Shown: in pieces, positions 1 to 12,038 of the stretch
Layout: every line of letters starts with the position of its first letter
Numbering within the stretch: position 1 is the stretch's first letter
Source: a virus
Lineage: Duplodnaviria > Heunggongvirae > Uroviricota > Caudoviricetes
DNA: 16,771 nucleotides
Reading direction: 5' to 3' (one strand)
IMG/VR virus record: IMGVR_UViG_2698536372_000015
Location: 1-16,771 of that record
The notes under the pieces: model-generated
Databases searched by the model: none
What the model saw: only the letters and a program-made list of their open reading frames with translations
Told to the model about the DNA's origin: nothing
Translations under genes and position numbers: made by a program

Positions 1-66
1 GATACAGGCAGTGTGCTGTTCAATTGCCTCGATCATCTCTTCACGGGTGACTAATGACGTTCTCAT
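1..66 (-). CDS. 5'-partial CDS of unknown function (N-terminus only; continues beyond window start)
   Basis: ATG at 66-64 on the minus strand preceded by a strong Shine-Dalgarno (AGGAGGG); reads MRTSLVTREEMIEAIEQHTACI and runs off the window. The ATG overlaps the TGA stop of the upstream ORF 63..455 as ATGA. Confidence 0.35.
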   Translation of the reverse strand, partial: MRTSLVTREEMIEAIEQHTACI

Positions 67-455
67 AGTCCCTCCTGAGCAGAAGCGTTAACAGGGAGGC
101 ACCAGTAACTGAGAGAATTGCGTGAATCAGTGGAAAAACGGGCAGAGAAAATACAGGGAGCATCCGGAAGCTGAGAACGTGCCTCATCTTCTGTCGGTGC
201 AATAACGAAGTGATAGTGGCGTTTCTGGCAGGAGTAAAAGCGCCAGATAAATTCAGGGCGTGCGCAAGGATTGGCATTAACCATAGTTACGGCCTCATTC
301 GTAGGTTTAACAACCTGCGACCCGCTGTCAAACAGGTGGCAGGACGTGACAGGGTTGACAGACTGGCACGAATGAAACCAGCAGGCCGAAGCCTCCCCAT
401 CACGCCCCACCATAATTCGGGCGTAACGCGGTTTACGGACACAAAAATACCGCAA
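63..455 (-). CDS. hypothetical protein; start uncertain (TTG at 455, or ATG at 284 with a GAGG SD)
   Basis: Open frame whose TGA stop overlaps the start of the next minus-strand gene (ATGA), and whose 3' end encodes that gene's SD. No recognisable motif; composition not strongly protein-like. Confidence 0.3.
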   Translation of the reverse strand: MRYFCVRKPRYARIMVGRDGEASACWFHSCQSVNPVTSCHLFDSGSQVVKPTNEAVTMVNANPCARPEFIWRFYSCQKRHYHFVIAPTEDEARSQLPDAPCIFSARFSTDSRNSLSYWCLPVNASAQEGL

Positions 456-585
456 TATCGGAAATCTGCGGTTGTCCGCATTCGTATTCAGGCTGTCAAA
501 CCTGGTCGCAGAATTTGCTACGACGGTGGAACTATAAGCCTGAACGACGATGAGATCAATAGAGCCGTGTTCGATGGTAGGTTAT

Positions 586-616
586 TTGCTCTAATAAATC
601 AAATTTATTAGAGCAA
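586..616. promoter_or_regulatory. perfect 14-bp inverted repeat (TTGCTCTAATAAAT / ATTTATTAGAGCAA, 3-bp spacer); candidate phage late-promoter or activator site
   Basis: Read directly from the sequence. Each arm matches the motif at 1561-1580. No flanking T-tract, so unlikely to be an intrinsic terminator. Confidence 0.4.
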
Positions 617-627
617 TAATGGTTAAA

Positions 628-879
628 TCATCTTCGCCTGCGTGCCATATATTTGCGCACCGCGCGGCGTGGACAATCTGAAGCGGTTTCTTTCTGCTGC
701 ATCAATCTCGCAGCCATGCTCAAAAAAGTCAGGCACAGCCGAAGCCCGGCATACAATAGCGGTTCCAGTGGCCACGTCTCATTGAGCACATATACCGCCA
801 TGAAAATCGAGTCGAAAACTATCGCCGCCAGCGATAACTTCATTGTCGAAAGTCGGCGGAGCTGCCGGAGTTTATTCAT
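628..879 (-). CDS. small hypothetical membrane protein, translationally coupled to the endolysin gene
   Basis: ATG at 879-877 overlaps the end of the endolysin gene (ATGAATAA). The 83-aa product has a hydrophobic segment (LSLAAIVFDSIFMAVYVL) and a basic C-terminus. No family recognised. Confidence 0.3.
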   Translation of the reverse strand: MNKLRQLRRLSTMKLSLAAIVFDSIFMAVYVLNETWPLEPLLYAGLRLCLTFLSMAARLMQQKETASDCPRRAVRKYMARRRR

Positions 880-1429
880 TGACCAGTCCCGTCAGGCAAA
901 GCTGGCGTTCTTTTTCACGGCGAATCTTTAAACCTCGCAGGGGCACGCCGTTACTGTTCACGAAATCAGGGAGATGGTTACACATATTCACCCATTCCCC
1001 TTTCTGCGCCCACTTGTGGATGGACGTTTCTACTCGCATGCCTCGCGCTTTGCTGTAGTAGGTCCGTAAGCTATTGCATCCCATATTGAATGCCGCGCTT
1101 GTCATTGCACTGAAGGCATTATCGGGCATGTCTTTGCCCCGGAAGTGCTGATTAATACAGCGTTCAGCGATCAGGATATTCTTTTCCCAATCAGCGGCGA
1201 TTTGCTGGTCGGTTTTTCGCACACCCGGCGTTACCCCGTGTGTATTACCGATCCCGTCAGTCCATACCCCCGCAGGGCACATGTATGGATCACGTCGGCA
1301 ACCTTCAGCGTTACCAATCAGCTCAAGCCCCGCCTGGTTGGTTCGCACATTGCCATTACCCATCACGATGGTAATCATCACCGCGATAGCGCAAATTGCA
1401 CCGCCTCCTGCGGCTGTTTTTCCCTTCAT
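872..1429 (-). CDS. lyz: SAR (signal-anchor-release) endolysin, glycoside hydrolase family 24 lysozyme, P1 Lyz-like
   Basis: 185-aa product from the ATG at 1429 (GAGG SD 7 nt upstream). N-terminal Gly/Ala-rich weakly hydrophobic SAR segment (TAAGGGAICAIAVMITIVMG) with Cys13, then Glu42, Cys44 and Cys51 in EGCRRDPYMCPAG, then lysozyme core motifs (GVWTDGIGNTHGV, REKERQLCLTGL). This layout matches what I recall of phage P1 Lyz. The longer ORF-track start at 1528 is rejected. Confidence 0.92.
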   Translation of the reverse strand: MKGKTAAGGGAICAIAVMITIVMGNGNVRTNQAGLELIGNAEGCRRDPYMCPAGVWTDGIGNTHGVTPGVRKTDQQIAADWEKNILIAERCINQHFRGKDMPDNAFSAMTSAAFNMGCNSLRTYYSKARGMRVETSIHKWAQKGEWVNMCNHLPDFVNSNGVPLRGLKIRREKERQLCLTGLVNE

Positions 1430-1560
1430 AAAGACCTCATAAGCGAATTTTTTACGCTCCAGGACAAACACCCATTCACAGCCAATACCGACTGACTCGA
1501 TCCCTTTAGAAGGCACAGGATAATGCAAATCACTTGTTAGCTACGTTTCAAAGATATACA

Positions 1561-1580
1561 TTATTGCTCTAATTAATTTG
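1561..1580. promoter_or_regulatory. third copy of the TTGCTCTAAT[A/T]AAT motif in the lyz-ssb divergent intergenic region; candidate late-promoter element
   Basis: TTATTGCTCTAATTAATTTG matches the reverse complement of 601-620 (19 of 20 positions). Lies between the divergent lyz and ssb starts. Direction of action not determinable from sequence alone. Confidence 0.35.
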
Positions 1581-1598
1581 TTTTATTGGGTAAGAAAA

Positions 1599-2087
1599 GT
1601 GGCACAACGCGGTGTAAACAAAGTCATCCTGATTGGTACCCTGGGGCAAGACCCGGAGATCAGGTATATACCAAATGGCGTCGCGGTCGGAAGACTCAGC
1701 ATCGCAACGAATGAATCATGGCGCGACAAGCAAACGGGCCAACAGAAAGAGCAAACAGAATGGCATAAAGTCGTTTTGTTCGGAAAACTTGCTGAAATTG
1801 CGAGTGAGTATTTACGAAAAGGTTCTCAGGTCTACATCGAAGGGAAACTTAAAACCCGTAAGTGGACAGATGACGCCGGTGTAGAACGTTACACGACGGA
1901 AATTATCGTCAGCCAGGGCGGCACCATGCAAATGATCGGCGCTCGTCGCGACGATTCACAGTCCACAAATGGCTGGGGGCAATCAAACCAACCTCAAAAC
2001 CACCAGCAATACAGCGGTGGTAGCAAACCTCAGAGCAGCGCCAATAACGAACCTCCAATGGACTTTGAAGACGATATTCCGTTTTAG
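1599..2087 (+). CDS. ssb: single-stranded DNA-binding protein (SSB)
   Basis: OB-fold SSB sequence closely resembling E. coli SSB ([50 protein letters not shown]), Gly/Gln-rich linker and the canonical acidic tail [11 protein letters not shown]. Likely GTG start at 1599; the ORF-track start at 1578 is a TTG inside the upstream motif. Confidence 0.93.
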
Positions 2088-2092
2088 AGTTT

Positions 2093-2275
2093 ATGAGTAA
2101 AAAACGACTGAAAGAAAAGCGGTGGTCCAAACGCCAACAAAAGCACGAACTCGCTAAAAAACGCCAAAGTTGGCAATGGAACGCGTTTTTAACGAACAGA
2201 ACACCCCGAGATATTGCTTTCGCTGGTGGGAAAACATTCCTGACCCACCTGAAGGCGCAATACATCAGTTTTTAA
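2093..2275 (+). CDS. possible small basic (Lys/Arg-rich) protein; may be a spurious ORF
   Basis: ATG 6 nt after the ssb stop; 60 aa, highly basic N-terminus (MSKKRLKEKRWSKRQQKHELAKKRQ). Overlaps the long-start version of the next ORF; weak SD. Confidence 0.2.
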   Translation: MSKKRLKEKRWSKRQQKHELAKKRQSWQWNAFLTNRTPRDIAFAGGKTFLTHLKAQYISF

Positions 2276-2289
2276 GCAGAGAAAAGACT

Positions 2290-3078
2290 ATGGCAGCACA
2301 AAATACTAAAACAATTCAATACCGCCTGCGTAATGGCCAGAGTGTCGAAGTGACCATCAATAATGATGGTGTACCTGGCGAAAAGGTTTCTATCTCCGAT
2401 CTGGCTATCGAAAAAACCATCATGTGCCACCTTGGCTTTACTGAAGAAGTGAGCAAAAAGCATGGTGTAGCAATCTGGAGCGCAATGGATACTGGTATGC
2501 GCAAATTCATTACTGCTCGTACCCCAGGGATGACCATGATGGACCTCATGCAGATTGCGCCGCTGTTTGAATGTGAGCCTTTAGATGTATTCAGCAATCC
2601 AGCTATCTGCCAGCAGTTATATGGTGAGGTGAAACTCGCGGTTACCCCCATTGTGCTGCATGAAGGATCGCTTGCTGGCGTGTGGAAAGTGGAGCGTATT
2701 TCAAGCTACATGCCTTTCCATGTCAACGGCGTAATCACTGGTGAAAATCAACCTGTTTCCGTTATAAAGTCAGACCTCAAGCGCGCAATTCTTGAAGCAA
2801 GTTGTCGAGTTATCGGCCTAGGCAAACAGTCTTATGTTTCCTTCCCGGCTGGCCCTGAAGGCCCGGCAGAAATTCTGATTATGGATGCCGATCTGCTCTG
2901 GCAAATACAGTTTCTAATTGGCAAAAGCATCATCCGAGCTGAAGAGCTCGATCAGTACATTACCTGCACGATGACGGATGAAGTCAAAAGTGTGGCTATA
3001 GCCAATGCCAGGAACCTATGTCGTGCTACATTGGCAGAACCGCAAGAAAACATTCCAGAAGAAACAGAAAGTGACTAA
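2290..3078 (+). CDS. hypothetical protein (262 aa from ATG 2290; alternative longer start at 2170 gives 302 aa)
   Basis: Long open frame with protein-like composition directly downstream of ssb; no motif recognised. Start choice is uncertain. Confidence 0.6.
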   Translation: MAAQNTKTIQYRLRNGQSVEVTINNDGVPGEKVSISDLAIEKTIMCHLGFTEEVSKKHGVAIWSAMDTGMRKFITARTPGMTMMDLMQIAPLFECEPLDVFSNPAICQQLYGEVKLAVTPIVLHEGSLAGVWKVERISSYMPFHVNGVITGENQPVSVIKSDLKRAILEASCRVIGLGKQSYVSFPAGPEGPAEILIMDADLLWQIQFLIGKSIIRAEELDQYITCTMTDEVKSVAIANARNLCRATLAEPQENIPEETESD

Positions 3079-3275
3079 TAAAAACCCCGTCAGTTGGCGG
3101 GGAACTCCACGTTAAATGACCAATTATTATGTTAGCTAGCAGTTAAAGCGCCTAGTCATTATCTCTTAAAGAAGTCTTTTTAACTTATCTAAATTAGTGA
3201 CACCTCCCGTTTTGCTTGCTATGGTATGCATTCATAAACCTATTCATTAATCTATTCACAACAGTAATTAAAACT

Positions 3276-4580
3276 ATGGCTACACATGCAACAACAATCC
3301 GTAGCTTGCTCAATCAAGGGCCTATGACACCAAGACAATTGGTTGAAAAACTCAGTGTTAGCCAACCAACGATATCTAGAGCATTAAGAGAACTTGGTGA
3401 TGAAATCGTTAGGATCGGAAATGGAAGATCTATTCAATATGCTTTACGAGACTCTTTTAGAGGATTCGAATCAGTCCCCATTTATCGTATAACTGAAGAG
3501 GGGTGTATTTGCGTTCTTGGTACTCTCATTCCGGTGAGGCCAGAAGGCTATGTTATGGTTGAGGATGGGAAAAATAACAGGCATAGCGATGGGTTACCTT
3601 GGTGGTTATTTGATATGCGTCCACAAGGCTTCCTTGGAAGAGCATATGCATCAGCATATGCTCTTGAACTTAACCTTCCCTCAAATCCAGAGCAATGGTC
3701 AGATACTGATGTGATCAAAGCCTTACTTAAGCATGGGCATGATGTTGTTGGTAATTTGTTAATTGGAGAGCAAGCGCGCACGCATTTTTTAGAGATGCAG
3801 CCTCCTGTTCCTGTTAATCGTGAAATTGAATATCCTGTATTAGCTTTAGCCGCTGGTGAAGGTGATGTGCCAGGTTCATCTGCTGGAGGTGAACAACCCA
3901 AATTTTGTACTTTCACAGAGCGTGGACATGTATTAGTGAAATTCTCTGCGCCTAACGACACCCCTATAAGTGAGCGCTGGAGAGATCTCTTGTTTGCTGA
4001 ACATCTCGCATTAAAAGTTCTGGGGGTAGAAACAGAAGTTTTTGATTATAACGGTCAGAGATTCTTGGAAATTCCCCGATTTGATCGTGTTGGTCAACTC
4101 GGTCGGGTAGGTGTATTCTCACTTCGTGCACTTGATGCAGAATTTGTTGGTAATGCAAGAGCAACATGGCCCTTGCTGGTTAAAGAGTTGGTAAAAAATA
4201 AGTGCGTCCATCCTGATGCGATTATTATAGCAACAAGGCTATGGTCTTTTGGTGTGCTAATAGGCAATACCGATATGCATAATGGCAACCTATCGTTTAT
4301 TAGTAGCCACGGACGCCCATATCATATTGCTCCAGCCTATGACATGTTACCTATGGGTTTTGCCCCACGCTCTGGGGGAGCAATGTCTAATGAGCTTAGA
4401 AAAACAGCACTACCAGACTTTGTAAGTCGAAAAATATGGGATGAATCTCTTGAATTAGCTGAAAAATTTTATGCATTGGCCTGTGAGGCCGACAAATTCT
4501 CAGCTAACTTTACTCCATGTTTAGAAGCACTACGCATCCACCTAGATGATTGTAAAATACGCATAGCCCGCCTGGCATAA
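3276..4580 (+). CDS. HipA-like Ser/Thr kinase with N-terminal helix-turn-helix domain (YjjJ/HipH-like architecture)
   Basis: N-terminal HTH (MTPRQLVEKLSVSQPTISRALRELG). HipA-type motifs: P-loop-like SSAGGEQPKF, catalytic GNTDMHNGNLSF, Mg-binding APAYDMLPMGF. Visibly more AT-rich than flanking genes. Start taken at ATG 3276 (MATHATT...) rather than the ORF-track 3216. Confidence 0.85.
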   Translation: MATHATTIRSLLNQGPMTPRQLVEKLSVSQPTISRALRELGDEIVRIGNGRSIQYALRDSFRGFESVPIYRITEEGCICVLGTLIPVRPEGYVMVEDGKNNRHSDGLPWWLFDMRPQGFLGRAYASAYALELNLPSNPEQWSDTDVIKALLKHGHDVVGNLLIGEQARTHFLEMQPPVPVNREIEYPVLALAAGEGDVPGSSAGGEQPKFCTFTERGHVLVKFSAPNDTPISERWRDLLFAEHLALKVLGVETEVFDYNGQRFLEIPRFDRVGQLGRVGVFSLRALDAEFVGNARATWPLLVKELVKNKCVHPDAIIIATRLWSFGVLIGNTDMHNGNLSFISSHGRPYHIAPAYDMLPMGFAPRSGGAMSNELRKTALPDFVSRKIWDESLELAEKFYALACEADKFSANFTPCLEALRIHLDDCKIRIARLA

Positions 4581-4583
4581 ACA

Positions 4584-4611
4584 AGAAATCCCGCCAATCG
4601 GCGGGATTTCT
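4584..4611. terminator. bidirectional hairpin terminator between convergent genes
   Basis: Perfect 12-bp stem AGAAATCCCGCC / GGCGGGATTTCT with 4-nt loop, 4 nt after the kinase stop and abutting the stop of the minus-strand acidic gene. Confidence 0.6.
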
Positions 4612-4920
4612 TCAATATACGATCTGGTCTACATGATCACCAAAATCATCGTCGTCGTCCTCATCGCCACCCTCTACTGCTGGCCAATCAACAAACCAGC
4701 CAGCGTAAAGATGCAGCGTTCGGAGAACATCACTTGCGGGAGCATCAAGGGTGTTAACGAATCCCATATAGCTATTGGGATTTGCCCCAGCTATGGCTTC
4801 AGCGATCATGTCCTCGGTAATGTCACCGGAGATAATGCTTAAACGCCCGGAAACTTCTTCATTATCATCAAATTCGATAATGGCATCTCCGCCTAATGGC
4901 GCTGCGATTTTAATCTGCAT
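4612..4920 (-). CDS. small highly acidic protein, translationally coupled downstream of the large minus-strand gene
   Basis: ATG at 4920 lies 8 nt upstream of the large gene's stop, with a strong SD (AAGGAG) inside that gene's 3' end. 102 aa, very acidic, C-terminal DEDDDDDFGD run. Confidence 0.6.
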   Translation of the reverse strand: MQIKIAAPLGGDAIIEFDDNEEVSGRLSIISGDITEDMIAEAIAGANPNSYMGFVNTLDAPASDVLRTLHLYAGWFVDWPAVEGGDEDDDDDFGDHVDQIVY

Positions 4921-7897
4921 TATTTAGCTCCTTTGCCACACCTAATAACAGTTCCAGCAATCCGTCACCATTCATCAGTGATGCGGCAGCGGCCTCTTTA
5001 TCATGATACAACTGAAGAGCCATAGAGAATACTTCCGTTGCTGACGTTTTGGAAATAGTCGGTGATTTCTGCCGAATTTTCCCGGTGTTACTTACTGAGG
5101 CTGGCGGGTATACCTTCGCCATATAAATATTACTCAATCGAGATCTGAAGCACCATTCAGGCTTGCCACGCCCACCGATATTGACGAAAGATGGCTTATC
5201 CCCTTCAACATTGGCCTTCAGGAATGACCGGGCTTTCTCTAACAAACCAGGGTTACTGTACTCAAGATGATGACCCAGCTCGTGCCACAGTGCGCTCGCA
5301 TTTTCATCGTTCAAATTGACAGCAACAACACCATTTAGATTTGCATATGCCCTTCCCTGGTGGTGAACTACCTTTGATAAGGTCGATATTTTCCCGCCGG
5401 TCAGGCGATAAATATCAGCAAGTTCCTTGCGCAGGTCTATCCCACCATTCTGTCCAGCGCGGGCTTCTTCCACTTCTTCTGTGATAAAAGAGTCGGCCCA
5501 CTCAAGAGCTTTTTCTTCAGATACGGATGAGTTTGCGATCGCACTGTTCATGGCAGATAACACTTTCTCGTGGACCGAACCCATACTTCGCTGATTCATT
5601 TGCCAGCGTGTCTGCGGGTTATATGAGAATCGCTTAAGTAGTTGGTCAAGCTGCTCAAGTTCTTCTTCACTGACATACTTTTTAGCCTCACCAATAATGC
5701 CAGGGAGAATATTGCCGTTAGGATTAAACGCTCGCGAAAGGAAGAGTTTCAGCGCCCCCATGCCCTCCGATGCTTCAATATCACCAATAACCCGGTTAAC
5801 AATGGCCGCACTCTTCGGATTAGCATCCGCCAACGCTCTGGCTACGATTTGCAGGGACGATACGACCTCACGCTGCATATCAGTCCTGATCTCATCAATA
5901 AACTCTGGCGTTATGCCGTGCTCTTTAAGGATATCCCGGCCTTCCGCCGTTACCCCATCGATATCACCGACATGTTTATTAACACGACTTTGCAATGCCT
6001 TAAATGCCTTCAGAATTCCACGGGCATCATCCGCTTTACTAACGGCCTTCCTGAATGCTGGCAAGAAGTCTGAGTTAACCTCATTTTGTTGATCGGCCCA
6101 CTGAATGGAGGCTTCCTTCATCTCGTCCAGAGTCAGATCACCCAACGCGGTATGGTCTGTGAATATGAGCGATAACCTCTGAACCATTTCTGCCAATGGT
6201 GATGCCGAATGCGCCGCGCTAAGGAATGCTTTCACCCTGGTTGGGCGAATGGAAAACCAGTCAATAGCTGGTGGCATATCTCCGTTTTTTATCGCCTGCG
6301 CTATCTCGTCAAAGCCATCGCGCCCAAGGGAGGATGCGTGATTTAACAAGCCGCGAAGTAACGAATTGCTGATACCGAATAATCGGCACCATTTTTTCAC
6401 GTCGGCAACAGGCATTCGAACAAAATGCGCAAGCACTTGAACAAGCTGTTCATCCTGGGGATCTGTACGGGAAAGCAGCCTGATCAGATGAATAATGTCT
6501 TTGATGCCGGATGCCCGATGTAATAGCAAGCTGGTATATGGAGCAACACCGTTGTAACTACCGCCAGAAGCTGACTCGAAAAGACCGCCAGATATCCCTT
6601 GCATACCTTCGTTTTCCAGTTCCTGAGATACCTGGCGAAGGATATCCTGTAACGACACATCGCCGCCGCCAAACATATCCCCGAGCGCCTGGCCCTGGTG
6701 CTGTAACTCATCATTGATACGTTGCGCCATCAACTTAAAGGCGGTGGCCATACGCTTCGCGCTACGGTTATTCGCGACGATGAACAACGCGAGTGCTTTC
6801 ACTTCCGGGGCCATTTCGCTGAACATATCCCCCTGAGCAATAACATCGGTAATATGCTGGCCTGACTCCTTCGATTGCCTTACCAGGTCTACCGCATCTT
6901 TCAATGCCGCCAGCGCCTTTTTATCGAGGCTATCCGCTGTCTCAATGCCATCAACAATAGTTGTCACAGCCTGCTTGTGCGCTTCTCCTGATAAAGCCTG
7001 CATCTGGACAAAATCATTGGCTGCCGCATTAAGCGCCGTCAGAACATTACGCATATCCGGATCAGGTTCTTCTGCAACCATCCTTACCAGGCGCGCATCC
7101 TTATATGCCTTGGCAAAGATCGCGTTTTGTATACGGTCTACAAGTTGCCGTGTTGGTCGCCCATCTTCAGTTACAAGGCCAGCCGCCTGTGTGGCACCAA
7201 CTTGCGTCATAAATCCGCGAATAAACGCGTCATTACTGCGGCTAAGCAGATCTCCGCTTTCTGACGGATTAAACAGCGCCATCATCGCCGGTGTTATGCT
7301 GTCGGCATCAACAAAAGCCTTTTCACTGGCTGCCATTTCCTGAAGATCAGAAATATTTGAGTCCTTGGCAAACTGAACGCGGTCAACCTTCGTTAACCGG
7401 CGGCGCACCAGTACCGGAGCCGTCATTGATTCAACCTTTTCAGTACGTATGCCGAATTCGGTCGCATGTTCAATCAGGTACTCCCGATACCGATCCGCAT
7501 TACCGTCCTGATAGGCTTTAATGATCCCCATGGTACGTCCATTACCTGACTCAACTGCATTGTCCTCACCAATTATCGGTGCGCCATGGCTGGATAATCC
7601 GGAATCGGTAAGCTGAGCAGGCCGCAAATCTTTGGATATCTGGTTAACCTGAAGAAGGCTGGATGCGCGGGTCCGGTCGCGCGGCTGAAGTTCCTGGGGA
7701 TAGTCAGGATTAATTTTCCCATCCAGAGTATTGGATACCAAAATAGCTGAGGCATCGACGATATCAAACGCTGTTTTTACCTCGTCTCCCTTCGCTGTCA
7801 CCACATACGAAACCCGCCCATAATCGGGCAGGTTCTTTAGCAGCTCGATCAGCGTTTCTATGCTGGTGGCCATTACCACCTGATCGCTTAAGCTCAT
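4910..7897 (-). CDS. large (995 aa) phage protein with an HExxH zinc-metallopeptidase-like motif; possibly an internal virion or antirestriction-type protein (position suggests P1 DdrB, unverified)
   Basis: Uninterrupted 2988-nt frame with protein-like composition. HELGHH encoded at 5284..5267 near the C-terminus. No other motif recognised; the DdrB assignment is from recalled P1 gene order only. Confidence 0.85.
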   Translation of the reverse strand: MSLSDQVVMATSIETLIELLKNLPDYGRVSYVVTAKGDEVKTAFDIVDASAILVSNTLDGKINPDYPQELQPRDRTRASSLLQVNQISKDLRPAQLTDSGLSSHGAPIIGEDNAVESGNGRTMGIIKAYQDGNADRYREYLIEHATEFGIRTEKVESMTAPVLVRRRLTKVDRVQFAKDSNISDLQEMAASEKAFVDADSITPAMMALFNPSESGDLLSRSNDAFIRGFMTQVGATQAAGLVTEDGRPTRQLVDRIQNAIFAKAYKDARLVRMVAEEPDPDMRNVLTALNAAANDFVQMQALSGEAHKQAVTTIVDGIETADSLDKKALAALKDAVDLVRQSKESGQHITDVIAQGDMFSEMAPEVKALALFIVANNRSAKRMATAFKLMAQRINDELQHQGQALGDMFGGGDVSLQDILRQVSQELENEGMQGISGGLFESASGGSYNGVAPYTSLLLHRASGIKDIIHLIRLLSRTDPQDEQLVQVLAHFVRMPVADVKKWCRLFGISNSLLRGLLNHASSLGRDGFDEIAQAIKNGDMPPAIDWFSIRPTRVKAFLSAAHSASPLAEMVQRLSLIFTDHTALGDLTLDEMKEASIQWADQQNEVNSDFLPAFRKAVSKADDARGILKAFKALQSRVNKHVGDIDGVTAEGRDILKEHGITPEFIDEIRTDMQREVVSSLQIVARALADANPKSAAIVNRVIGDIEASEGMGALKLFLSRAFNPNGNILPGIIGEAKKYVSEEELEQLDQLLKRFSYNPQTRWQMNQRSMGSVHEKVLSAMNSAIANSSVSEEKALEWADSFITEEVEEARAGQNGGIDLRKELADIYRLTGGKISTLSKVVHHQGRAYANLNGVVAVNLNDENASALWHELGHHLEYSNPGLLEKARSFLKANVEGDKPSFVNIGGRGKPEWCFRSRLSNIYMAKVYPPASVSNTGKIRQKSPTISKTSATEVFSMALQLYHDKEAAAASLMNGDGLLELLLGVAKELNNAD

Positions 7898-7996
7898 CCC
7901 TGTTACGCCTTATCCAATGTGCCGCCCCCTACGCTCCTCATAGTGGGGATATAAGGCACAGTTTTCCTCCCGGCTATTTTTGCTTAAAATAGTGAC

Positions 7997-9943
7997 ATGA
8001 AACAACAGGTGTCATTCAAATTCCGGTTAAAACCAGATGGTCAACAGGAGCGTCAAATGAGGCGCTTTGCCGGAGCTTGTCGTTTCGTTTTCAACCGTGC
8101 TCTGGCGCTTCAGAATGAGAATCATGAGGCCGGTAAAAAATACATCCCTTACACGAAAATGGCTTCCTGGTTGGTTGAGTGGAAAAAAGACACTGAAACC
8201 GAATGGCTTAAAGATTCTCCCTCACAGCCATTGCAACAGTCACTGAAAGACCTTGAGCGGGCTTACAAAAACTTCTTCCAGAATCGGGCAGCTTTTCCCC
8301 GATTCAAAAAGCGGGGACAGAATGATGCATTCCGCTACCCGCAGGGTGTTAAGCTCGATCAGGAGAACAGCCGTATTTTTCTGCCGAAACTGGGCTGGAT
8401 GCGCTACCGGAATAGCCGTCAGGTCACGGGTGTTGTGAAAAATGTCACTGTCAGCCAGTCCTGCGGTAAGTGGTACATCAGTATTCAGACAGAAAGAGAG
8501 GTATCCACTCCTGTTCACCCTTCTGCATCAATGGTCGGACTGGATGCTGGTGTGGCTAAACTCGCCACGCTGTCAGATGGCACAGTCTTTGAACCTGTAA
8601 ATAGTTTTCAGAAAAACCAGAAGAAGCTGGCGAGACTTCAGCGACAGTTAAGCCGCAAGGTCAAATTCAGCAACAACTGGCAGAAGCAGAAACGCAAAAT
8701 ACAGCGACTGCATTCCCGTATCGCAAATATCCGCAGGGACTACCTTCATAAAGTCACAACGACCGTCAGCAAAAACCACGCAATGATAGTCATTGAGGAT
8801 TTGAAGGTCAGCAACATGTCAAAGTCAGCAGCGGGTACGGTCAGCCAGCCGGGGCGCAATGTCCGGGCAAAATCAGGTTTAAACCGTTCGATACTGGATC
8901 AGGGCTGGTATGAAATGCGCCGCCAGCTTGAGTACAAGCAGCTCTGGCGTGGCGGTCAGGTGCTTGCTGTTCCGCCAGCGTACACAAGCCAGCGTTGCGC
9001 GTGCTGTGGTCATACAGCGAANNNNNNNGCTTTTCCCCGATTCAAAAAGCGGGGACAGAATGATGCATTCCGCTACCCGCAGGGTGTTAAGCTCGATCAG
9101 GAGAACAGCCGTATTTTTCTGCCGAAACTGGGCTGGATGCGCTACCGGAATAGCCGTCAGGTCACGGGTGTTGTGAAAAATGTCACTGTCAGCCAGTCCT
9201 GCGGTAAGTGGTACATCAGTATTCAGACAGAAAGAGAGGTATCCACTCCTGTTCACCCTTCTGCATCAATGGTCGGACTGGATGCTGGTGTGGCTAAACT
9301 CGCCACGCTGTCAGATGGCACAGTCTTTGAACCTGTAAATAGTTTTCAGAAAAACCAGAAGAAGCTGGCGAGACTTCAGCGACAGTTAAGCCGCAAGGTC
9401 AAATTCAGCAACAACTGGCAGAAGCAGAAACGCAAAATACAGCGACTGCATTTTCGTATCGCAAATATCCGCAGAGACTACCTTCATAAAGTCACAACGA
9501 TCATCAGCAAAAACCACGCAATGATTGTCATTGAGGATTTGAAGGTTAAAAACATGGCAAAGTCAGCAGCGGGTACGGTCAGCCAGCCGGGGCGCAATGT
9601 CTGGACAAAATCAGGTTTAAACCGTTCGATACTGGATCAGGGCTGGTATGAAATGCGCCGCCAGCTTGAGTATAAGCAGCTCTGGCATGGCGGTCAGGTA
9701 CTGGCAGTGCCGCCAGCGTACACAAGCCAGCGTTGCGCGTGCTGTGGTCATACCGCGAAAGAAAATCGCCTGTCACAAAGTAAATTCAGATGCCAGGTAT
9801 GTGGATATACAGCGAACGCCGATGTAAACGGCGCTCGTAACATTTTAGCGGCGGGGCACGCCGTTCTTGCCTGTGGAGGGATGGTGCAGTCAGGCCGCCC
9901 GTTGAAGCAGGAACCAACCGAAATGATTCAGGCGATAGCCTGA
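7997..9943 (+). CDS. tnpB: IS605-family TnpB (OrfB) RNA-guided nuclease; assembled ORF artefactually lengthened by an in-frame 738-nt duplication across a 7-N gap (true length about 402 aa)
   Basis: RuvC-I GLDAG, RuvC-II VIEDL, zinc finger CACCGH...CQVCGY, Ruv[14 protein letters not shown]. Blocks 8291-9021 and 9029-9759 are near-identical and separated by NNNNNNN; the offset is 738 nt, so the frame is kept and the translation shows XXX. Confidence 0.85.
8291..9021. repeat. first copy of duplicated 731-bp tnpB segment, ending at the assembly gap
   Basis: Identical to 9029-9452 over the first 424 bp, then roughly 15-20 substitutions by eye up to the gap. Confidence 0.8.
9029..9759. repeat. 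second copy of duplicated tnpB segment, contiguous with the tnpB 3' end
   Basis: Begins immediately after the N run at 9022-9028 and continues into the C-terminal zinc-finger region. Confidence 0.8.
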
Positions 9944-10004
9944 ACGTAGCAGGAATCCACGCCCGTCAGGGTGCGGAGGATGTCAAAAGGCAGGTGAGGT
10001 TATA

Positions 10005-11326: not shown

Positions 11327-11430
11327 ACTCAAAACAATCTGATTATGTGATAACCATATCATATTCCTCATTCCACCTACACTGATTACCCCCCAGACAA
11401 CAACATTCCTACTCAATGAACAAATGACTA

Positions 11431-12038
<608 letters not shown>

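Follow-up and report, generated by a model that had tools for sequence, protein, structure and literature searches.

The master repressor C1 of phage P1 recognises operators with the asymmetric 17-mer consensus ATTGCTCTAATAAATTT (PMC8546580), from which the annotated operators of P1 depart at 0 to 5 positions and, in one case, at 7. The bivalent operators annotated in P1, Obanab (Op72ab) and Oc1ab (Op99ab), are 28 bp long each, with two sites that share a self-complementary AAATTT and have their centres 11 bp apart. Monovalent operators include Ossb (former Op21), which serves ssb, one of the genes found to be C1-controlled by RT-qPCR (PMC4713147), and Oc4 (former Op51). The latter is a single site (AATGCTCTAATAAATTT in P1) upstream of c4, and its last two bases overlap the -35 of the promoter P2c4 (former P51a). 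Additional copies of icd and ant in P1-like plasmids were reported before, without operator analysis (PMC6906374).

The stretch of DNA analysed here, hereafter the window, comprises 16,771 nucleotides and is a segment of a P1-like phage-plasmid. Positions 632-3079 and 4614-7913 are 96-98% identical to lydD-lyz-ssb-isaA and hxr-ddrB of P1, 9987-16771 matches P1 from simA to sit, and 2-628 is 82% identical to the immI region. The closest complete relative, the E. coli plasmid pAUSMDU00014361_02 (NZ_CP045829), shares 99.1% identity with window positions 1-7913 and has a P1-like operator set throughout its genome; for the window as a whole there was no covering record, and none at ≥80% in the plasmid or E. 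coli collections.

A repeat search confirmed the perfect inverted repeat at 586-616 that had been described in an earlier note on this DNA. Its arms, 586-599 and 603-616, are 14 nt each, 100% complementary and separated by the 3-nt centre CAA; the surrounding sequence, 581-622, is GTTATTTGCTCTAATAAATCAAATTTATTAGAGCAATAATGG. By direct reading, the exact 20-mer ATTATTGCTCTAATAAATTT is located on the minus strand at 620-601, and a further copy, ATTATTGCTCTAATTAATTT, which differs from it by one A/T exchange, is located on the plus strand at 1560-1579. The earlier note had rightly placed this third copy between lyz (872-1429, minus strand) and ssb (1599-2087, plus strand), but its coordinates, 1561-1580, were off by one. 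Its statement that both arms carry the motif holds for the 14-bp core but not for the full 20-mer, of which the left arm at 582-601 (TTATTTGCTCTAATAAATCA) matches 15 of 20 positions and shares only the core. The repeat search also returned a related copy at 1564-1587.

When the 17-mer ATTGCTCTAATAAATTT was searched with up to three mismatches allowed, exactly three sites were detected within the window: 601-617 on the minus strand with no mismatch, 1563-1579 on the plus strand with one, and 585-601 on the plus strand with three. The chance expectation, taken from 200 dinucleotide-preserving shuffles of the window, was 0.09 sites per window, and none of the 200 shuffles reached three. All three sites fall within the mismatch range of accepted P1 operators. 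The similarity between 593-621 (minus strand) and 1559-1587 (plus strand) extends past the 17-bp operator to 27 of 29 nt, in the form CATT-operator-G(A/T)TTTATT; a 3' extension TTG(A/T)TTTT is common to many P1 operators, where it also serves as the -35 hexamer.

Alignments to AF234172, AF125376 and AF503408 showed positional homology to defined operators for 1563-1579 (Op21) and 601-617 (Op51). In AF234172 (P1), the feature that aligns base for base with 1563-1579 is the 'monovalent C1-controlled operator Ossb; former Op21', and AF125376 labels the same site 'operator 21; binding site for the major P1 repressor protein C1'. The window site, ATTGCTCTAATTAATTT, has exactly the sequence and position of its annotated P1 equivalent, and nothing material differs, as the two flanking substitutions lie outside the operator. 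It is positioned directly downstream of the -10 of P2ssb (TTGTTA-17-TACATT, 1534-1562, plus strand), whose assignment follows from homology to the P1 promoter annotated as P2ssb/Pr21, and the ssb gene starts 20 nt further on; by the same homology the site adjoins a sigma-70 promoter that it could occlude. In a lysogen, Ossb would keep ssb off. The right arm of the palindrome, 617-601, coincides in every alignment column with the 'monovalent C1-controlled operator Oc4' (former Op51) of P1 and P7, in neither of which the left arm, 585-601, has an equivalent.

We conclude that all three motif copies are probably binding sites of the P1 master repressor C1, and that the palindrome is probably a bivalent form of Oc4/Op51 that heads a c4-icd-ant anti-repressor cassette of the immI type. 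For this explanation as a whole we estimate a joint probability of about 0.8. The operator identity is read from sequence: it is based on the consensus match, the positional homology to annotated operators and promoters, the presence of the c4 RNA and its targets, and the C1 protein of the sister element. The c1 gene itself lies outside the 16.8-kb window; in NZ_CP045829, the encoded C1 is identical to that of P1 (C1.100) at 281 of 283 positions. The earlier note had offered a dimeric operator as its fallback, and this was partly right, in that the palindrome would contain two inverted C1 operators; each of these is asymmetric, however, so the element would be bivalent rather than a classical dimer site. 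Neither the motif nor Ossb is new, and both belong to textbook P1 biology. The main value of these assignments is thus a correction of the annotation, as the elements are read as repressor operators and not as late promoters. What is new is modest, namely an immI operator in a second, palindromic allele with a spacing absent from the known bivalent operators of P1, and the finding that this allele heads an anti-repressor cassette present at multiple sites and in multiple copies.

The primary operator at 601-617 (minus strand) corresponds to ATTGCTCTAATAAATTT without mismatches and forms the right arm of the palindrome. The second, inverted predicted operator at 585-601 (plus strand; TTTGCTCTAATAAATCA) forms the left arm and matches the consensus at 14 of 17 positions, including 14 of 14 in the core. 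To the left of the palindrome follows an immI-type c4-icd-ant operon that is read leftwards on the minus strand. It comprises the equivalent of the P1 promoter P1c4 (P51b), TTGATC-17-TATAGT at 531-559, which was matched by the consensus scan and coincides with the annotated P1c4 in the alignment; the a1/b1 element of the operon leader, a target of C4 RNA, at 485-537 (Rfam RF03163, 57.1 bits, E = 2.3e-12); the gene for the C4 antisense RNA at 332-417 (Rfam RF01695, 69.8 bits, E = 4.1e-12), which was aligned with c4 of P1 and P7; icd, encoding a cell-division inhibitor of 73 aa, at 63-284, as judged from its translation and its annotation in NZ_CP045829; and the start of the anti-repressor gene ant at 1-66, cut by the window edge.

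The palindrome overlies a putative sigma-70 promoter at 574-602 on the minus strand, TTGATT (602-597)-17 (596-580)-TACCAT (579-574), which is the positional homologue of P2c4 (P51a). With 8 of 12 consensus positions it remained below the 9/12 threshold and was not called by the consensus scan; its assignment follows from positional homology and from the invariance, across alleles, of the palindrome's centre and the GTA of the -10. On the minus strand the layout is ATTGCTCTAATAAAT-TTGATT-TATTAGAGCAAATAACC-TACCAT, that is, an operator, a -35 with a 2-nt overlap, a 17-bp spacer (596-580) that holds the inverted left-arm operator, and a -10. An operator followed by TTGATT or TTGTTT recurs at many C1 operators, and the P1 annotation sets -35 hexamers at this place in Odmt, Olpa, Oc1e and Oc4, which argues that the centre of the palindrome is likewise a -35; the same architecture with TTGATT is present at OpmgT. 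At the position of ATTTGCTCTAATAAATC in the window, P1 and P7 read CGCGACTTAAAAATAC. This difference, together with a left arm that lacks a counterpart there, indicates that the P51a promoter region is present in the window as a different allele. All statements on P51a and P51b rely on the GenBank annotation of AF234172.

The locus thus resembles P1 Oc4 in its position upstream of c4, its orientation and the 2 nt that it shares with the upstream promoter's -35, and downstream in the P51b promoter, the a1/b1 targets, the C4 RNA, icd and ant. It differs from the single site of P1 and P7 in having a perfect-consensus site plus an inverted second site in the promoter spacer. In addition, the promoter region at 548-600 of the window is of a different allele than in P1 immI, and the cassette, which adjoins sim in P1, is found between pro and lydD.

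We propose that repression at this locus would proceed as follows. The right arm, 617-601, adjoins the putative -35 TTGATT of the P51a-type promoter with a 2-nt overlap, exactly as in P1, and the left arm, 585-601, covers the remainder of the hexamer and the 17-bp spacer. In a lysogen, C1 would bind to 617-601 and probably also to 585-601, and the two repressors, placed tail to tail, would cover approximately -50 to -18 and shut the P51a-type promoter. The P51b-type promoter (559-531) would stay free and yield the C4 RNA, by which translation of icd and ant would be blocked. We infer that C1 may occupy the left arm, that TTGATT-17-TACCAT would be an active promoter, and that double occupancy would tighten repression. 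If the double operator indeed tightens repression, this would help to account for the safe carriage of several anti-repressor genes by one prophage, and the cassettes would provide a tractable example of the stacking of immunity specificities among competing phage-plasmids.

Obanab (Op72ab) and Oc1ab (Op99ab) likewise consist of two C1 operators placed inverted and tail to tail over a sigma-70 promoter, and the orientation of their sites is the same as in the palindrome. The geometry, however, is different: the window element spans 33 bp with an overlap of 1 bp and operator centres 16 bp apart, and it is therefore 5 bp longer than the 28-bp elements with their 6-bp AAATTT overlap, which corresponds to about half a helical turn more. 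Inverted partners were scored at all offsets for each operator of P1 and the sister plasmid. Among these operators, the 28-bp geometry was strong at Oban only and weak at Oc1ab (10 of 17 positions), and the 33-bp geometry with a partner of at least 14/17 was found at no locus but this one. Since the centres are 16 bp rather than 11 bp apart, what is known of Op72ab and Op99ab is not directly transferable; we infer that the palindrome would work like a bivalent operator without sharing the 28-bp geometry.

To survey the allele family, loci were collected from IMG/VR by an anchor outside the operator, AAGCCTGAAC-N7-AGATCAATA. The 30 loci obtained, together with the window, gave 17 distinct 110-nt sequences and 16 distinct 49-nt operator alleles. 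Three elements were invariant in all 16 alleles: the core of the right arm (ATTAGAGCAA), the centre (AAATCAAA) and GTA within the -10. The left arm was perfect (14/14) in 8 of the 16; the remainder had one to several substitutions, giving decayed forms such as TTGCTCCAAT, TTGCCCCAAT and TTGATCCAAT, with CCGCACCCAAAA as the extreme. The left arm thus appears to be dispensable in the lineages in which it is mutated, about half of the alleles. As a whole, the allele pattern fits an essential primary operator with an auxiliary second operator that was lost in some lineages.

The same pattern could be taken to mean that only the right arm works, monovalently as in P1 and P7, and that the left arm has no regulatory role, being left over from an inverted duplication or produced by chance. 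One site suffices in P1 and P7, and the left arm bears uncompensated substitutions in 8 of the 16 alleles, being unrecognisable in 2-3 of them, whereas the right-arm core is fixed. We nevertheless regard this explanation as unlikely. The 8 alleles with a 14/14 left arm have kept this core in at least three genomic contexts while the neighbouring spacer and the flanks diverged, and a match of 14/17 equals that of several accepted P1 operators.

Alternatively, the palindrome could act as a nucleic-acid hairpin, either as a terminator or insulator that ends the lyz-lydD late transcript, which proceeds into the co-oriented cassette, or as a cruciform or recombination site at the cassette edge. Indeed, a stable fold was predicted (RNA, z = -3.25; DNA hairpin, -11.6 kcal/mol, z = -7.8), the palindrome is positioned 7-12 nt past the stop codons of lydD and lydE, and in every allele a mosaic breakpoint falls at the operator's right edge. 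However, the stem is A+T-rich and is not followed by a T run on either strand, with no U tract on the minus strand, and the palindrome was absent from the terminator scan. Among the 14 hairpin pairs, none was changed on both sides in any of the 16 alleles, and 11 depart by unpairing only; because the left arm decays without compensation while the right-arm core is fixed, the hairpin is not what is conserved. Moreover, the palindrome is also present where no lydD precedes it, and both of its arms match a known protein-binding consensus. On the basis of RNA and DNA folding, the terminator scan and covariation over the 16 alleles, a hairpin or terminator was largely rejected, and we consider it very improbable. 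The possibility that the palindrome is an artefact of the junction at which immI was joined to lydD was rejected as well, since it is also present with four other right flanks. Phage D6 has no P1-type operator upstream of its c4 and was uninformative for the comparison. At the junction in the window, the putative antiholin gene lydE (623-775, minus strand) has lost its original 3' end to the inserted cassette and encodes 50 aa, compared to 71 aa in P1, and the last codons of lydD (628-879) are altered as well.

The earlier note had likened the motif to the Lpa-recognised element of P1 late promoters and suggested that the palindrome could be two late promoters placed back to back. A -22 box was derived from the eleven late promoters annotated in P1 (AF234172) and scanned over the window; in these promoters the consensus AAGTGACTT is followed, after 4 nt (9 nt in LPhot), by TANNNT. 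The only close matches within the window were LPlyz at 1535-1517 on the minus strand (-22 box AAGTGATTT, -10 TATCCT), which is identical to the annotated LPlyz, lies outside the operator motif and is 28 bp away from Ossb, and a site at 11422-11440 (plus strand), identical to P1 LPsit (AAATGACTA-N4-TAGAAT) and located upstream of pmgC. Like the C1 operators, the P1 late promoters are short conserved elements scattered over the genome, but both their sequence, AAGTGACTT-N4-TANNNT, and their protein, Lpa, are different. A late-promoter function has nothing in its favour but the closeness of the late genes lyz and lydD, and we consider it refuted, because the motif, when compared directly, agrees with the -22 box at no more than 5-6 of 9 positions and thus mismatches it at 3-4 or more on either strand, because the genuine LPlyz and the LPsit homologue are located elsewhere, and because the motif equals the published C1 operator consensus (PMC8546580).

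The operator of the palindromic type, read here as a bivalent Oc4/Op51, recurs beyond the window. NZ_CP045829.1 contains three c4-icd-ant cassettes (L134 21930-23523; L134 49555 to L135 1225; L135 10094-11765), each with its own C4 RNA and a C1 operator upstream. One occupies the canonical site and has a single operator of the P1 type, one is of the window type, with the palindrome, between pro and lydD, and the third is located between c1 and pacB; the third cassette also has an isrK-like RNA match. In several P1-like contigs of IMG/VR, an immI leader of the palindromic family was observed two or three times. The palindromic allele was found in at least four contexts, namely by lydD, by the region upstream of mat, at the 3' end of mat (res-mod site) and behind dbn. 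In P1-like phage-plasmids of E. coli, E. albertii and Salmonella, cassettes headed by this allele occupy several sites and are present in more than one copy. The junction of the cassette with lydD is rare: among matching records, 11 of 491 PLSDB plasmids and 16 of 491 complete E. coli genomes have it (about 2-3%). A scan of genome contigs gave one match only, to an unrelated Bacteroidetes.

Similarity among the alleles always stops a few bases past the operator. In all alleles examined, from P1, P7, Ro157c2YLVW and the IMG/VR contigs, the right edge of Oc4 (~618-632 in the window) coincides with a mosaic breakpoint. Since this edge is a breakpoint and the cassette is found in at least four contexts, the operator may mark, or even serve as, a recombination joint.

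A further possibility, which we put forward tentatively and regard as doubtful, is that the 33-bp palindrome represents a distinct class of bivalent C1 operator, with the repressors half a helical turn off relative to Op72ab and Op99ab, and evolved as a clamp on the upstream promoter in accessory anti-repressor cassettes. Such cassettes, each composed of an operator, a c4 RNA with its own specificity loop, icd and ant, would be mobile among at least four sites in P1-like phage-plasmids, with up to three per genome, and the operator edge would be the recombination joint. Were this the case, mobile, stacked anti-repressor cassettes would broaden superinfection immunity.

The loop of the C4 RNA (within 332-417) is hypervariable among otherwise near-identical cassettes. 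It reads CATTCGTG in the window, CACAATCG in the sister plasmid and P7, and CACTAACG in P1; including CGTAAGTG, four loop types were distinguished. The b1 target in the leader (~479-486) varies in step with the loop between cassettes, which suggests a switching of immunity specificity. In the window, b2 (~295-302) also matches the loop of its own C4 RNA, an observation confined to the window.

Some rearrangements relative to P1 were observed in the remainder of the window. At 7914-9986, a TnpB element of the IS200/IS605 type (ORF 7997-9943) joins ddrB to simA-simB-simC-pmgC-tub-pmgB-sit. The orientation of this gene block is inverted compared to P1 and the sister plasmid, implying an inversion of ~18 kb over the sim-to-ddrA segment. 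Lastly, a gene for a HipA-family toxin (3216-4580, plus strand; yjjJ in related plasmids) is located between an isaA-like gene and hxr, where P1 has IS1 and isaB.
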